From the NCBI GenBank assembly GCA_036011085.1, contig DASCMS010000052.1, positions 20,166 to 84,165 on the forward strand: 64,000 bases of DNA, given 5' to 3'. The stretch is from Candidatus Latescibacterota bacterium. Lineage in GTDB: Bacteria; Latescibacterota; UBA2968; UBA8231. Of the stretch, positions 36,637-41,284 are shown one piece after another. Each line of letters opens with the position of its first letter. Position 1 is the first letter of the stretch. Position numbers and translations under genes: made by a program. The notes under the pieces are model-generated. The model was not told the DNA's origin and made no database searches. It saw only the letters and a program-made list of their open reading frames with translations.

Positions 36637-37557
36637 ATGGCGCGGATCCACGTCGCCGGCAACACCGTGCTAGACATCGTAGCCCACGGTGGGCCTCTCA
36701 CCGAAGCCGGGGCGGACGGTTGGGGGGCGAACGTGCAGCTCCTCGACGAGCCGGTCACAGTGACACTTGGCGGGTGTGGCGCCGCGCCCGCGTACCTGCT
36801 GTCGCGGCTGGGGCATTCGGTGACGCTGTCGACGAATCTTGGCGACGATTCATTCGGCATGCTGCTCGCCGGCTGGTTGCGGCAGGCAGGTGTCGTGCTC
36901 GACCCGGAGCCTGCCGCCGGGACCGCGTCGGCGACGCACGTGATCCATGTCAGTGGCAGCGAGCGTCAGTCATCCTACTACCGGGGTGGTCCCGTGGACT
37001 GGGCCGCCGGTTCGCCACTTGGGTCGTCGGACTGGTATGTGGCCTCCGGATACGGTGCCGTCGGTGCCGATGACCTGCGCCGGTTGACCGAAGTATGTGT
37101 GAGATTGCGGGATTCCGGCATCCGGGTGTTGTTTGATCCCAGCCCATGGTTTTCGGGCCGGGTGGAGAGAGCCGACATGCTGCGGTTGTGGTCCGCGGTT
37201 GATGTGCTGTCAGGTACCGAGGAAGAACTGGCTGTCTGGGTGCCGGGCATCGACGACGCAGCCGGTATGGCGCGGGCGGCAGTAGATTCAGGCCCGAGCC
37301 TCGTGGTGGTGAAACGTGGTGCGGCTGGCGCCGCCTGGGCCACGGCGCAGGATCAGGGCCAGGTGGCGACTCGACAGGTGGAGGGCAACAGCGTGGGTGC
37401 GGGGGACTGCTTCAACGCCCAGCTCGTCGACGGGCTGGCCCGAGGCGAGTCACCCGGAACAGCAGTTGCCGCAGCAGTAGAAACAGCGACGAAGGTGGTG
37501 GAGGCCGGCAGGGGAGTTCTGGGTCTGTATCCACCGTCCCCTCAAGGAGAAGGATAA
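36637..37557 (+). CDS. PfkB-family carbohydrate kinase
   Basis: 306 aa. ATG immediately follows the upstream TAA. TLGGCGAAPAYLLSRLG and C-terminal GAGDCFNAQLVDGL motifs. Confidence 0.8.
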   Translation: MARIHVAGNTVLDIVAHGGPLTEAGADGWGANVQLLDEPVTVTLGGCGAAPAYLLSRLGHSVTLSTNLGDDSFGMLLAGWLRQAGVVLDPEPAAGTASATHVIHVSGSERQSSYYRGGPVDWAAGSPLGSSDWYVASGYGAVGADDLRRLTEVCVRLRDSGIRVLFDPSPWFSGRVERADMLRLWSAVDVLSGTEEELAVWVPGIDDAAGMARAAVDSGPSLVVVKRGAAGAAWATAQDQGQVATRQVEGNSVGAGDCFNAQLVDGLARGESPGTAVAAAVETATKVVEAGRGVLGLYPPSPQGEG

Positions 37558-37565
37558 CGAGACAG

Positions 37566-39044
37566 ATGTCGCAGAATCCACCGAATGTCATCGTGATCAT
37601 GACCGACCAGCAGAAGGCGACGTCGAGCCATCTGTGGGGCAACACCTTCTGCGAGACGCCGGCCCTGGCGTCCCTGGCCGGAGACGGCGTGCTGTTCGAC
37701 TGTGCCGTCACGCCGCATCCGCTCTGCGGGCCGGCGCGTCAGTCTCTGTGGACGAGTCAGTTTCCCCATTCCCACGGAGGGCGTCGCAACCAGACGCTCA
37801 TGTCCCCCCACGCCGTGCATGCCTTCCAGATCTGGAAGGAGGCGGGTTATCACAACGGACTGATCGGCAAGAATCACTGCTTCGAGACGGCCGAGGACCT
37901 GGCGCTGTTCGACACCTGGTGTGAGTGCGGCCACGGCGGCATCACGGAGCCTTCGACGAAGGGCATGGAGTGGTTCCGCCCACGTGCCGGCATCGACGCC
38001 GCCCACGCGGCACGCAAGAACATGACACCGCAGAGCCCACGATTTGCCTACGGCACCAACGACCTGCCGCTGGAGGACAGTGGTACAGGTCTTATCGCCG
38101 GGCAGACGGTGCGGTTTCTCGAAGAACACCAGAACGATCCCTTCGCTCTGTGGGTGTCGTTCCCCGATCCCCACGAGCCCTGGGTGTGCCCCGAGAAGTA
38201 TGCCGACATGTTTCCGGCGGATCGTGTCGAGATGCCGCCCTGGCGCCGGGACGAGTTCGCCGACCCGGAGACGGTGCCCGAGCGCAACCGGGTGCTGAAC
38301 AAGATCCTCGGCTTCGACGACGACGACCCGGAAGACATGATGGGTGTGCAGGGGGTCTACTACGGTATGGTCAAGTACCTCGACGACGGCCTTTCACAGA
38401 TCACCGCTGCCCTCGACCGGCTGAACCTGCGGGAGAACACGATCGTCGTCTACTGCTCAGACCACGGCGACTTCATGGGCGAGCACGGCATGCAGTGCAA
38501 GGGGGGCGTGTTCTACGACTGCCTGACGCGCGTGCCCCTGGTTGTATCGTGGCCGGGGCAGGTCTCCGGCGGCGTGCGGGAGGACAGCCCGGTGAATCTG
38601 ATCGACATCGTGCCCACCGTGCTGGGTCTGCAGGGCTTGGACGTGCCGCGGTCGATGCACGGGGAGCCGCTGCCATCGGTGGTGGAGGATGGGCCGGGCA
38701 GGGAAGTCACGTTCAGCGAGTACGGCGCCGGGGGGCCCGCCTTCACGATGGCAGATCTGGAGCAGATGGAGCAGCCGTACGGGCGGCGAGCGCTGATGAA
38801 CTCGCTGCAGTGGCGTGAGGCGGAGGGCCGGCGCAAGATGGCGCGCACGCGGGAGTGGAAGTACGTGCACGATCCCATGGGGGACCTGGATGAGCTGTAT
38901 GATTTGAAGAACGACCCCTGGGAGGTGACGAATGTGGCACACCTGGCTGAGCATACGGATGTGGTCGCGATGATGCGGGGGCATCTGGCGGACTGGTCGA
39001 TTCGGACGGAGGACTCGCGGGCGGTGCCGATGCCGGTTTCTTGA
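37566..39044 (+). CDS. Sulfatase (formylglycine-dependent, cytoplasmic-looking: no signal peptide seen)
   Basis: NVIVIMTDQQ...PLCGPARQSLWTSQFPH (CxPxR signature) and CSDHGDFMGEHG. Confidence 0.9.
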   Translation: MSQNPPNVIVIMTDQQKATSSHLWGNTFCETPALASLAGDGVLFDCAVTPHPLCGPARQSLWTSQFPHSHGGRRNQTLMSPHAVHAFQIWKEAGYHNGLIGKNHCFETAEDLALFDTWCECGHGGITEPSTKGMEWFRPRAGIDAAHAARKNMTPQSPRFAYGTNDLPLEDSGTGLIAGQTVRFLEEHQNDPFALWVSFPDPHEPWVCPEKYADMFPADRVEMPPWRRDEFADPETVPERNRVLNKILGFDDDDPEDMMGVQGVYYGMVKYLDDGLSQITAALDRLNLRENTIVVYCSDHGDFMGEHGMQCKGGVFYDCLTRVPLVVSWPGQVSGGVREDSPVNLIDIVPTVLGLQGLDVPRSMHGEPLPSVVEDGPGREVTFSEYGAGGPAFTMADLEQMEQPYGRRALMNSLQWREAEGRRKMARTREWKYVHDPMGDLDELYDLKNDPWEVTNVAHLAEHTDVVAMMRGHLADWSIRTEDSRAVPMPVS

Positions 39045-39070
39045 CATCCTCCAACCCCCCCGGCTATACT
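39041..39070 (+). promoter_or_regulatory. Near-consensus sigma70 promoter TTGACA-18-TATACT
   Basis: TTGACA at 39041-39046 (overlapping the sulfatase stop) and TATACT at 39065-39070. Followed by an SD (GGAG 39106-39109) and a small ORF. Confidence 0.6.
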
Positions 39071-39118
39071 TAACTCGTTCCAACCGACCGAATTACCTTC
39101 AAGACGGAGTCAATCAGG

Positions 39119-39253
39119 ATGTCATACGACCGGATCGTACAGGTCGCCGGAGTGGGCGGGATCGCCCTGCGCCGGATGACGTCCACCCCTACGACCACAC
39201 CGCCCGCCACGGGTACTCGTGACGGACAGACGATGGTGGTGTTTCCGGGGTAA
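39119..39253 (+). CDS. Putative Thr-rich leader peptide upstream of thrS (44 codons)
   Basis: Manual translation: MSYDRIVQVAGVGGIALRRMTSTPTTTPPATGTRDGQTMVVFPG. 7 Thr in a 13-codon stretch (39179-39217). GGAG lies 9 nt upstream of the ATG. Ends 32 nt before a strong terminator. Confidence 0.5.
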   Translation: MSYDRIVQVAGVGGIALRRMTSTPTTTPPATGTRDGQTMVVFPG

Positions 39254-39284
39254 GACCCGATCTCGAACTGACATTGACGAGAAA

Positions 39285-39323
39285 GCCCGCTGTCGACCGA
39301 CATATCGACAGGGGGCTTTTTTT
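39285..39323 (+). terminator. Intrinsic terminator (attenuator candidate) between promoter and thrS
   Basis: GCCCGCTGTCGA (39285-39296), loop CCGACATA, TCGACAGGGGGC (39305-39316): a 12-bp stem with one mismatch, then TTTTTTT (39317-39323). Only 35 nt remain before the thrS GTG. Confidence 0.8.
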
Positions 39324-39358
39324 CATGGAATACTGGACTGGAGTGAGATAGAAACAGC

Positions 39359-41284
39359 GTGAGAATCCAAATACGGGAAGGAGAGGTGCTCGAACACGAG
39401 GGCGGGGGCAACCTGCGTGACATCCTCATCGAGCACGACAAGACGATGCTGCGGGAGTTCATCGCGGCACGCAGCAGCGAGGAGAGCCGCATCGACTTCC
39501 ACACAGAGCTCGGTGCGGATGCCGAAGTCGAGTTGATGGCCTGGGATGACCCCGAAGCGGCGTGGATCTACCGGCACAGCATGTCCCATGTGCTGGCCCA
39601 GGCGGTCAGGCACCTGTTTCCCGACGCGCAGCTGGCCATCGGGCCGGCCATCGACGACGGCTTCTATTATGACTTCGATGTGGAGGAACCGTTTACACCG
39701 GAGGACCTGAAGGCGATCGAGAAACAGATGAAGCGCGTGGTGAAGCAGAACCACCGCTTCGAGCGCGAGGAGGTCAGCCGCGACGAGGCGCTCAGCCGAC
39801 TCGAGGGCGACACGTACAAGCTCGAACTGCTCGAAGATCTCGATGCGGAGGAGACGCTCACCTTCTATAAGGATGGGGACTTCGTCGATCTGTGCCGGGG
39901 GCCGCACATGCTGAGCACGGGGCAGGTCAAGCACTACAAGCTGCTCAACGTGGCCGGCGCCTACTGGCGTGGGGACGAGAGTCGCAAGATGCTGCAGCGC
40001 ATCTATGGCACGGCCTTCGCCACGCGCGAAGCCCTCGACCATCACATGAAGATGCTGGAGGAGGCGAAGAAGCGGGACCATCGCCGCCTCGGGCAGGAGC
40101 TGGAGCTGTTCTTCTTCGACGACGAGGTCGGCCCGGGTCTGCCGCTGTGGCAGCCAAAGGGAACTGTGCTGATCGACGAGCTGGAGAAGCTGGCGAAGGA
40201 GACGGAGACGGAAGCCGACTACCTGCGGGTGCGCACACCGCACATCGCCAAGGACAGCATCTACCTGACATCCGGTCATCTGCCGTATTACAAAGAATCG
40301 ATGTTCCCTCCCATGGAGATGGAGGGGGTGACGTACTACCTGAAGCCGATGAACTGTCCGCACCATCACAAGATCTTCGGCTCGGAGCCGCGCTCCTACC
40401 GTGATCTGCCGATCCGGCTGACGGAGTACGGCACGTGCTACCGGTATGAGCAGTCGGGCGAGTTGTTCGGTCTGATGCGGGTGCGGTCGATGCAGATGAA
40501 TGACGCGCACATCTACTGCCGCATCGATCAGTTCGAAGAGGAGTTCCTCGCCGTCTGTCGCATGTACCTGAAGTACTTCGAGCTGTTCGGCATCGAGAAG
40601 TACATGATGCGGTTCTCGACACACTCCGAGGAGGGGCTCGGCAAGAAGTACGTCGACGCACCGGAGCTGTGGAAGAAGACGGAGGACATGGTGCGCCGCA
40701 CGCTCGAGAACGGGGGCATCCCGTATGAGGAGGTCGCCGGCGAGGCCGCCTTCTACGGGCCGAAGATCGACGTCGAGATCTGGTCCGCCATCGGGCGCGA
40801 GTTCAGTATCGCCACGAACCAGGTCGATTTCGCTGTACCGGAGAGGTTCGGGCTGCACTACACAACAACGGAAGGTGGCGACGAAACGCCGTTGTGTATT
40901 CACCGGGCCCCACTGGGCACACACGAGCGCATGATCGGCTTTCTGATCGAGCACTATGCGGGGGCTTTCCCGCCGTGGCTGGCCCCGGTGCAGGCCGTCG
41001 TTCTGCCGATCGCTGAGCGTCATCAGGAGTACGGTGCCAAGGTGCTGGCGGCTCTGCGGGCGGAGGGCGTCCGAGCCGAATCACATGCGGACCAGACGCT
41101 CAACTACCGTATCAGGGCGGCGCAGAAACAGAAGATACCGTTCATGATGATCCTCGGTGATCGCGAGGTGGAGGATGGGCAGGTCGCTATCAGGCTGCGG
41201 TCCGGTGACAACATGGATCCCATGGGAGCTGATGCCGCGGTGACGATGATCACCGACAAGATCGCCACTCGTTCGGCCGAGTAA
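39359..41284 (+). CDS. thrS: Threonine--tRNA ligase
   Basis: 641 aa with a GTG start. TGS-like N-terminus, editing-domain HSMSHVLAQAV, class II motifs (FRRDE-like RVRTPHI, GELFGLMRVRSMQMNDAHIYC, YGPKIDVEI) and an anticodon-binding C-terminus. Confidence 0.95.
   Translation: MRIQIREGEVLEHEGGGNLRDILIEHDKTMLREFIAARSSEESRIDFHTELGADAEVELMAWDDPEAAWIYRHSMSHVLAQAVRHLFPDAQLAIGPAIDDGFYYDFDVEEPFTPEDLKAIEKQMKRVVKQNHRFEREEVSRDEALSRLEGDTYKLELLEDLDAEETLTFYKDGDFVDLCRGPHMLSTGQVKHYKLLNVAGAYWRGDESRKMLQRIYGTAFATREALDHHMKMLEEAKKRDHRRLGQELELFFFDDEVGPGLPLWQPKGTVLIDELEKLAKETETEADYLRVRTPHIAKDSIYLTSGHLPYYKESMFPPMEMEGVTYYLKPMNCPHHHKIFGSEPRSYRDLPIRLTEYGTCYRYEQSGELFGLMRVRSMQMNDAHIYCRIDQFEEEFLAVCRMYLKYFELFGIEKYMMRFSTHSEEGLGKKYVDAPELWKKTEDMVRRTLENGGIPYEEVAGEAAFYGPKIDVEIWSAIGREFSIATNQVDFAVPERFGLHYTTTEGGDETPLCIHRAPLGTHERMIGFLIEHYAGAFPPWLAPVQAVVLPIAERHQEYGAKVLAALRAEGVRAESHADQTLNYRIRAAQKQKIPFMMILGDREVEDGQVAIRLRSGDNMDPMGADAAVTMITDKIATRSAE

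Follow-up and report, generated by a model that had tools for sequence, protein, structure and literature searches.

A likely threonine-dependent leader-peptide attenuator ahead of thrS in Latescibacterota and neighbouring phyla

The threonyl-tRNA synthetase (ThrRS) gene, thrS, of a Candidatus Latescibacterota bacterium is preceded by an RNA leader that, judging from its sequence and from those of its relatives, likely works as a ribosome-mediated, threonine (Thr)-dependent leader-peptide transcription attenuator. The locus lies in a 64,000-nucleotide stretch of contig DASCMS010000052.1 (positions 20,166 to 84,165 of the forward strand), referred to here as the window, and all coordinates are counted from its first nucleotide. 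The elements of such a switch follow one another in order ahead of thrS (Table 1), they are conserved in related loci, and two of them are mutually exclusive helices, an antiterminator (regions 2 and 3) and a terminator (regions 3 and 4). Attenuation of thrS by a Thr-rich leader had been put forward in a preliminary description of the locus, and the comparisons reported here, in which the leader open reading frame (ORF), its run of Thr codons and the terminator recur in diverged leaders, support that proposal.

Architecture and conservation of the leader

The promoter that had been claimed for the leader (TTGACA-18-TATACT) is present and agrees with the consensus at 11 of 12 positions; a scan of 1.4 kb turned up two promoter-like sites, compared to 0.4 expected from shuffled sequences. 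The TGA stop codon of the preceding sulfatase gene (39042-44) falls within its -35 hexamer. The GGAG Shine-Dalgarno (SD) motif and the 44-codon ORF with seven Thr among 13 codons were likewise recovered where they had been placed. Translated from 39179, the run reads TSTPTTTPPATGT (T-S-T-P-T-T-T-P-P-A-T-G-T) around a core of ACG ACC ACA (39191-39199), and an additional in-frame ATG at 39176 stands immediately 5' of it. All four types of Thr codon occur in the leader, including ACT, which makes up 2% of the Thr codons in neighbouring genes, and the Thr density of the run is rare, not unique (18 of 127,924 windows of 13 codons in six frames, from 5 sites). Of the hairpin described as a 12-bp stem with a T7 tract, both parts are present and the whole is stable (ΔG -20.4 kcal/mol), while the stem proved to contain one G.G mismatch, a position occupied by G-C or G.U in relatives. 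thrS does start 35 nt beyond the terminator, with GTG 39359; its product carries the Pfam domains tRNA_SAD, tRNA-synt_2b and HGTP_anticodon, the set of a ThrRS, and the start position is kept in relatives (MRIQ, MKIQ, MLIK).

Table 1. Features of the thrS leader, in window coordinates.
Feature	Position	Strand	Details
sigma-70-type promoter	39041-39070	+	-35 TTGACA 39041-39046, 18-nt spacer, -10 TATACT 39065-39070
Leader-ORF SD, GGAG	39106-39109	+	9 nt ahead of ATG 39119
Leader-peptide ORF	39119-39253	+	MSYDRIVQVAGVGGIALRRMTSTPTTTPPATGTRDGQTMVVFPG; 44 codons plus TAA (39251-39253)
Thr-codon run (region 1)	39179-39217	+	ACG TCC ACC CCT ACG ACC ACA CCG CCC GCC ACG GGT ACT
Hairpin P1	39204-39225	+	CCG-C-CACGG / GUAC / UCGUG-A-CGG; between Thr run and region 2
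Region 2, antiterminator 5' strand	39231-39244	+	CGAUGGUGG 39231-39239, bulged U40, GUUU 39241-39244
Hairpins P2 and P3	39246-39282	+	inside antiterminator; present in both conformations; conserved in group A
P2	39246-49 with 39256-59	+	CGGG with CCCG; leader stop UAA 39251-53 in loop
P3	39261-65 with 39278-82	+	UCUCG with CGAGA
Region 3, common to antiterminator and terminator	39283-39296	+	AAGC and CCGCUGUCG pair with region 2; GCCCGCUGUCGA (39285-96) pairs with region 4
Intrinsic terminator	39285-39323	+	5' arm 39285-39296, loop 39297-39304, 3' arm (region 4) 39305-39316, T7 39317-39323
Likely thrS SD, GGAG	39340-39343	+	15 nt ahead of GTG in the window, 6 nt in L081
thrS, threonyl-tRNA synthetase	39359-41284	+	641 aa, GTG start, 35 nt past T-tract

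Seventeen related loci with a homologous leader were compared with the window: L081-L086, which resemble it (group A), L087-L089 and L134 (group B), and L135-L138, L003, L001 and L069. They come from Latescibacterota-type metagenome-assembled genomes (MAGs) and metagenome contigs, L134 being labelled Gemmatimonadetes and L069 Planctomycetota (labels as given). The ThrS of the window is 73-75% identical to Latescibacterota MAG proteins; nine closer loci (76-90% identity) were retrieved by a metagenome scan with the clade-specific N-terminal part of ThrS, L081-L089 stemming from marine and groundwater samples, and five further locus contexts by a protein search and context look-ups, which covered 5 of the 120 ThrS clusters listed at 74% identity or above. 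The upstream gene varies among loci (sulfatase, PfkB kinase, gamma-glutamyl transpeptidase, MOSC and others) while the leader stays, indicating that the cassette belongs to thrS. A composite signature of region 2 and the terminator was found 15 times in 855 kb (both strands), in every case directly upstream of thrS; as the signature was derived from these same leaders, this count measures specificity only. No comparable Thr-rich leader ORF was detected in ~120 more distant thrS loci (Chloroflexota, Marinimicrobia, Elusimicrobiota, Verrucomicrobiota and others). In L134 and in the P0022 contig PfkB lies directly upstream of thrS, and then comes an M50B-like gene.

When the regions upstream of thrS were compared, as the preliminary description had suggested, the terminator was found in 17/17 and the canonical upstream ORF in 16/17 of the related loci, and the Thr run in 14/17 leaders (window included). 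The identical TTGACA-18-TATACT promoter precedes the leader in nine relatives (L081-L085, L087-L089 and L134), that of L069 is near-identical (TTGACA-18-TACATT), and the GGAG(T)-N9-10-ATG context is kept in L081-L084, L087-L089, L134 and L135. The frame of the leader ORF is open across the relatives, indels being multiples of three. At least four Thr in eight consecutive codons occur in the 14 leaders with a Thr run, compared to 1.7% of 6,993 other small ORFs drawn from the same sequences, and at least five in 13/17 leaders, compared to 0.26% of this background. In all of these 14 no residue is more enriched than Thr, and the runs (TSTPTTT, TTTPATT, TATTTTTTTTT, TIPTTSTRSTT, TATTWTTTT) stand amid otherwise unalignable peptide. 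The core Thr codons of group A show five distinct substitutions, all of them synonymous, and synonymous changes amount to 11/25 in frame 0 versus 5/24 and 7/24 in the other frames.

The shortest version of the leader is instructive as to where translation may begin. In L085 (1013-1141; compare window 39041-39253) the TATACT -10 box is only 6 nt from the ATG of the leader ORF (MTSTPTTT...), so that the leader-peptide mRNA is probably leaderless. Its ORF starts at the equivalent of 39176 and so lacks the first 57 nt of the window's ORF (39119-39175), a stretch that L084 has in shortened form; the in-frame ATG 39176 of the window may for this reason be functional as a start as well. In the minimum-free-energy fold of the window leader, GGAUGUCAU (39117-25, with the first AUG) pairs with AUGACGUCC (39176-84, with the second in-frame AUG); such a stem-loop domain (39117-39184), closing over the variable N-terminal part of the ORF, might affect the timing of ribosome loading.

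The terminator and the helix that competes with it

A strong terminator (ΔG -16 to -24 kcal/mol, T5-T9 tracts) is present in 18/18 loci (the 17 relatives and the window), at a distance from thrS of 24-51 nt in most loci and of 76-104 nt in L134 and L135. As a joint MAFFT alignment of groups A and B misaligned the GACGAUGG motif, pair counts were taken instead from an alignment of the terminator only (A2) and from mini-sequences registered by hand (A3). On A2 (12 loci) 96.9% of the terminator cells are paired, compared to 30-50% in slid registers, with compensatory changes at 4 of 12 pairs. The leader terminator is also the only + strand hairpin of -12 kcal/mol or lower followed by T5 or more in the 64 kb. 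The z-score of the whole-leader fold (-3.75) is owed largely to the terminator and to long-range GC pairing, and the segment 39170-39284 folded alone is not more stable than its shuffles (z = +0.38).

The preliminary description had seen no convincing antiterminator by eye. One was found by folding the RNA left exposed beyond a ribosome stalled at the Thr run, cut ahead of the 3' arm of the terminator: for each of the two stall positions used, the terminator 5' arm paired in 11/13 loci with a segment shortly before the leader stop codon. In the window CGAUGGUGG (39231-39239) pairs with CCGCUGUCG (39287-39295) and the helix is extended by GUUU (39241-44) with AAGC (39283-86), giving a full helix of 39231-39244 with 39283-39295, just where a terminating ribosome would mask region 2. 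The same register recurs in group B (CGAUGGUGGG with CCCAUCGUCG), L069 (GGCGGUGGG with CCCACUGCC), L137 (CGACGGUGG with CCCACUGUCG) and L003 (CGAUAGCG, with one bulged G, with CGCUGUCG). The mutually exclusive 2:3 and 3:4 helices for which a fold had been proposed as a check are both there. A GACAG-based antiterminator picked out by eye was dropped, as it is not kept in L081 and L082.

In a sliding scan (111-233 windows per leader) region 2 was the best ungapped 10-nt complement to the 5' arm across the whole leader in 12/16 loci; in the window it ranks best among 153 leader windows and ends 11 nt ahead of the stop codon. The distance from its end to the stop is 5-11 nt in 10 of the 12 best-complement loci, the exceptions being L086 (stop codon inside region 2) and L135 (20 nt). 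So close to the stop codon, region 2 would be masked by a terminating ribosome and free with a ribosome stalled 30-55 nt upstream. The 2:3 duplex scores z -2.4 to -3.0 relative to dinucleotide shuffles in three lineages (group B, L003 and L069), and in the minimal leader of L085 the arm nucleotides are sequestered to 0/11 with no ribosome, 0/11 with a ribosome at the stop and 10/11 with a ribosome at Thr, in agreement with the model. On these sequences the identity of the antiterminator appears well supported by position and recurrence, and by covariation it is not proven.

Two further structural features touch on this part of the leader. L137 (580-609) and L138 (583-612) carry tandem copies of region 2, CGACAGTGGG and CGACGGTGGA, 21 nt apart and both complementary to the 5' arm; the copies rank first and second as arm complements, the upstream one matching the arm perfectly (10/10) and the second ending 11 nt before the stop. 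Hairpin P1 of the window is possibly a pause or spacing element: its C.A mismatch is replaced by U-A in L085 and by C-G in L082, and group B has a hairpin of other sequence (GCCUGC/GCAGGC) at this position.

From these elements one can picture how the leader ORF would be translated, how the ribosome would stall, how the helices would compete kinetically and how the cell would respond. Transcription would start ~7 nt past the -10 box, and a ribosome would load at GGAG/AUG 39119 and translate the 44-codon leader as RNA polymerase nears the terminator. With Thr-tRNA-Thr plentiful, this ribosome would pass the Thr run and reach UAA 39251, where its footprint would mask region 2 (39231-39244); region 3 would then be free to pair with nascent region 4, and the terminator with its U7 would halt transcription 35 nt before thrS. 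With charged tRNA-Thr scarce, owing to low threonine or low ThrRS activity, the ribosome would stall at 39179-39217 (core 39191-39199) with a footprint that stops short of region 2, which (CGAUGGUGG.GUUU) would capture region 3 (AAGC.CCGCUGUCG) before region 4 is made, so that no terminator would form and the polymerase would enter thrS. Since the signal is charged tRNA, such a circuit would report ThrRS insufficiency as well as threonine shortage. The terminator state is predicted to be more stable than the antiterminator by 3-15 kcal/mol, and the switch must consequently be kinetic. In the trp attenuator of Escherichia coli the switch is likewise kinetic, with the terminator as the stabler state.

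Contrary evidence and alternative explanations

Several observations weigh against attenuation by a translated Thr leader. Some concern the antiterminator: the 2:3 duplex of the window itself reaches only z = -0.9 relative to dinucleotide shuffles, and 2:3 covariation is weak (88.8% of cells paired, with only one compensatory pair, a result not above column shuffles, 168/500). The register is moreover ambiguous, as a +3 slide of the helix pairs almost as well (87.5%), a consequence of region 2 being a G/U-rich GGU repeat that is tolerant of transitions. For the long GC-rich leaders, folding at equilibrium gives noisy results, the 5' arm finding other upstream partners, and in the window it predicts the antiterminator even without a ribosome; equilibrium three-state folds were judged too noisy to decide, the minimal L085 leader excepted. 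The Thr-codon region is able to form a 1:2 helix with the GGU-rich region 2 (-10 to -14 kcal/mol), though no better than shuffled sequences do, and such a protector or pause helix is not essential in all attenuators. Other points concern the ORF, which is long for a leader peptide (44 codons, with the Thr run from codon 21). In L001 (2726-2982) and L135 (403-631) the run has decayed to 2 Thr in eight codons with promoter, ORF and terminator kept, L135 also retaining the CGAYGGYGG motif of region 2; L134 has only 3 Thr in eight codons, L136 has the Thr-run frame (TTT run) but no in-frame ATG, GTG or TTG start, and L002, a locus that shares its ThrS N-terminus with L001, is without any leader (upstream of 3001). 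Part of the clade (L001, L135, L002) appears to be losing or re-purposing the attenuator. Finally, all of the support comes from sequences of uncultivated organisms, and we know of no study of transcription-translation coupling in these phyla.

The exceptions L001, L135, L134 and L136 could be decaying or re-purposed switches, and they are at the same time the main support for a quite unlikely account in which a trans factor (ThrRS, uncharged tRNA-Thr or another RNA-binding protein) binds P1 and the CGAUGGUGG motif and sets the choice between antiterminator and terminator, the Thr ORF being secondary. That L001 and L135 keep promoter, ORF and terminator (and L135 the motif) despite a decayed Thr run fits this account, as does the conservation of the motif as RNA even where the reading frame shifts, e.g. 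in L086; E. coli ThrRS is, furthermore, known to autoregulate by binding its own mRNA (PMC2965389). What it leaves unexplained is the strong, lineage-independent Thr enrichment in 14/17 leaders, whose core Thr codons change synonymously only, and the fixed distance between region 2 and the stop codon, which is only sensible with the ribosome as effector. P1, P2 and the terminator differ in loop sequence from lineage to lineage (P1 loops are GUAC, GAAU, UUU and AAGA), there is no evident anticodon-arm mimic and no T-box match at E up to 1, and the interval from the terminator to the thrS start, 24-51 nt long in most loci, contains no hairpin such as an operator of the E. coli type would have. 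The GGUAA in the P2 loop of the window, considered as a mimic of the ThrRS operator, was rejected because it arises from the codons GGG-UAA and neither L086 nor group B has it. It is unlikely, too, that this conserved and uncatalogued cis-regulatory RNA family, known from Latescibacterota-type genomes and from the MAGs labelled Gemmatimonadetes and Planctomycetota, does more than attenuate in response to a single input, with a second input in some lineages (L001, L135). Such an input would be implied by the switch core outliving the decayed Thr run (the terminator in L001, the terminator and CGAYGGYGG in L135), and the GGU-repeat strand would then be the target of, e.g., ThrRS or uncharged tRNA-Thr; this strand is itself complementary to Thr codons and looks like a row of tRNA-Thr anticodons.

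Highly improbable, in our judgement, is a mainly post-transcriptional role of the upstream ORF, whose translation or stalling might alter the stability of the thrS mRNA or the initiation of its translation, or the release of the leader as a small RNA or peptide having a function of its own. The unusual length of the ORF, the MS[YI]DR N-terminus conserved in several loci and a mini-ORF between the terminator and thrS (39325-39351) would suit such a role, for which Sinorhizobium trpL, with its attenuator-derived small RNAs and peptides that have trans functions, sets a precedent (PMC6614838, PMC7298713). Yet the N-terminal part is dispensable (L085 lacks it, L084 has it shortened, and in L003, L069 and L137 it is unrelated), the C-terminus switches frame in L086, and what is invariant (the Thr run, region 2 near the stop and the U-tract terminator) is what attenuation needs. 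The claim that a separate thrS promoter would have no room was slightly too strong, for a weak 9/12 match with a TG ahead of its -10 box (TCGACA 39305-10, 18-nt spacer, AATACT 39329-34) overlaps the terminator (39305-39334). It hardly makes credible, however, a short, self-contained transcription unit, or a terminator that acts constitutively, with thrS downstream under its own promoter: no such site occurs between terminator and thrS in the 12 other leaders scanned (L001, L003, L069, L081-L089), the interval in most loci is just the 24-51 nt given above, and both the constancy of the cassette as upstream genes change and the confinement of the composite signature to sites upstream of thrS in 855 kb speak against it. 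Effectively refuted is a divergent T-box riboswitch of the kind that regulates Bacillus thrS by tRNA-Thr-dependent antitermination. The gene and the ~250-nt length of the leader would be typical, and there are ACC codons and a UGGU-containing motif; this UGGU, however, is part of an uninterrupted helix strand instead of an antiterminator bulge, the leader has neither a Stem I nor a specifier-loop architecture, several Thr codons are conserved with synonymous variation, and ORF and SD are conserved. In addition, the Rfam T-box model (RF00230) gave no match at E up to 1 in 38900-39500, and neither in the whole window nor in 14 related loci did any Rfam family reach its gathering score. The Rfam Thr_leader model (RF00506) had no match at E up to 1 in the window either, so that the leader is not a member of that family. 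The sole Rfam match was a sub-threshold one to His_leader (24.9 bits versus a cut-off of 49, E = 0.07), mainly over the terminator, and was set aside as terminator similarity only.

Relation to known systems and further observations

The E. coli pheST attenuator, with its leader peptide pheM, is an established example of leader-peptide attenuation of a synthetase operon. It shares with the thrS leader the order of promoter, short ORF rich in cognate codons, mutually exclusive antiterminator and terminator, and synthetase gene, and it senses the charged cognate tRNA, hence responding to both the amino acid and the synthetase activity. It differs in responding to Phe and not Thr, in belonging to another phylum, in the lack of sequence similarity and in its 14-codon leader, compared to 44 codons here, where the run lies mid-ORF and the extra hairpins P1-P3 are present. 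The thrL leader of E. coli (RF00506) is likewise a Thr-codon-rich leader peptide that governs an intrinsic terminator via ribosome stalling; as opposed to the leader described here, it controls the thrABC biosynthesis genes and not a synthetase, and it also has Ile codons. In Streptomyces, leader-peptide attenuators were predicted for trpS and leuS in a paper that cites pheST as precedent (PMC1262725), and leader-peptide attenuation was predicted for a Bacillus hisS paralog (PMC2965389). Closest in gene is Streptomyces lividans TK24, for which thrL-thrS and alaL-alaS leaders were derived from RNA-seq (PMC8079986); its thrL, MKRVRPFLETTPGFVPAR, has two Thr codons and one hairpin without a U-tract, and the authors call termination not clear (PMC8079986). 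The Streptomyces leaders resemble ours in having a short cognate-codon ORF upstream of a synthetase gene, some of them leaderless as L085 appears to be. The leaders analysed here are set apart from S. lividans thrL by 5-8 Thr in eight codons, a canonical terminator, an identifiable antiterminator and conservation at many loci, and come from other phyla with no sequence relationship to it.

thrS is a textbook case of one feedback problem solved in different ways, by a translational operator in E. coli and by a T-box in Firmicutes. The B. subtilis thrS T-box shares with the present leader the choice between terminator and antiterminator, a ~250-nt leader and the reporting of tRNA-Thr charging, and differs in that uncharged tRNA binds Stem I and the T-box bulge directly, with no leader translation. 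The E. coli operator, too, exerts negative feedback on thrS via the 5' leader; there, however, ThrRS binds an anticodon-arm mimic beside the SD and acts on translation initiation, whereas in most of our loci the terminator is followed by 24-51 nt of mostly unstructured RNA with no conserved anticodon-like loop. The view that a Thr-rich leader would be a different solution from these two holds insofar as neither matches here, and a Thr leader-peptide attenuator would be a third solution; its novelty is smaller than had been supposed, given pheST, the predictions for trpS and leuS and the weak S. lividans thrS candidate (PMC1262725, PMC8079986). Besides S. lividans, no earlier thrS leader-peptide attenuator was found in the openly searchable literature, subscription-only surveys (e.g. 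Russian-language ones) lying outside this scope. New are the gene and the lineages, for which there is no clear prior documentation, and a family far better defined than the S. lividans case; as its mechanism is a classical one, conceptually the gain is modest. The proposed switch would extend ribosome-mediated attenuation, and hence functional transcription-translation coupling, to mostly uncultivated phyla (Latescibacterota and neighbours). The family of ~18 sequences could seed an Rfam-type model and improve annotation, the leader ORF being at risk of a hypothetical-protein call.

A few minor features of the locus complete this description. The sulfatase gene (37566-39044) sits between a PfkB kinase gene and the thrS leader (window 36637-39046). 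Canonical intrinsic terminators are very rare on both strands of the window, which has a GC content of 64%: one further, weaker candidate lies on the - strand (60552-60508), and most window genes presumably end transcription by other means. The T-tract of the leader terminator is followed by CAT(G) in 11/18 loci. In the window, ATG 39325 opens the mini-ORF mentioned above (MEYWTGVR, stop codon TAG 39349-51), which ends 7 nt before the thrS GTG, and a similar one (MRYGNGS, then stop) is found in L082; it could possibly serve ribosome standby or reinitiation on read-through transcripts, or be there by chance.

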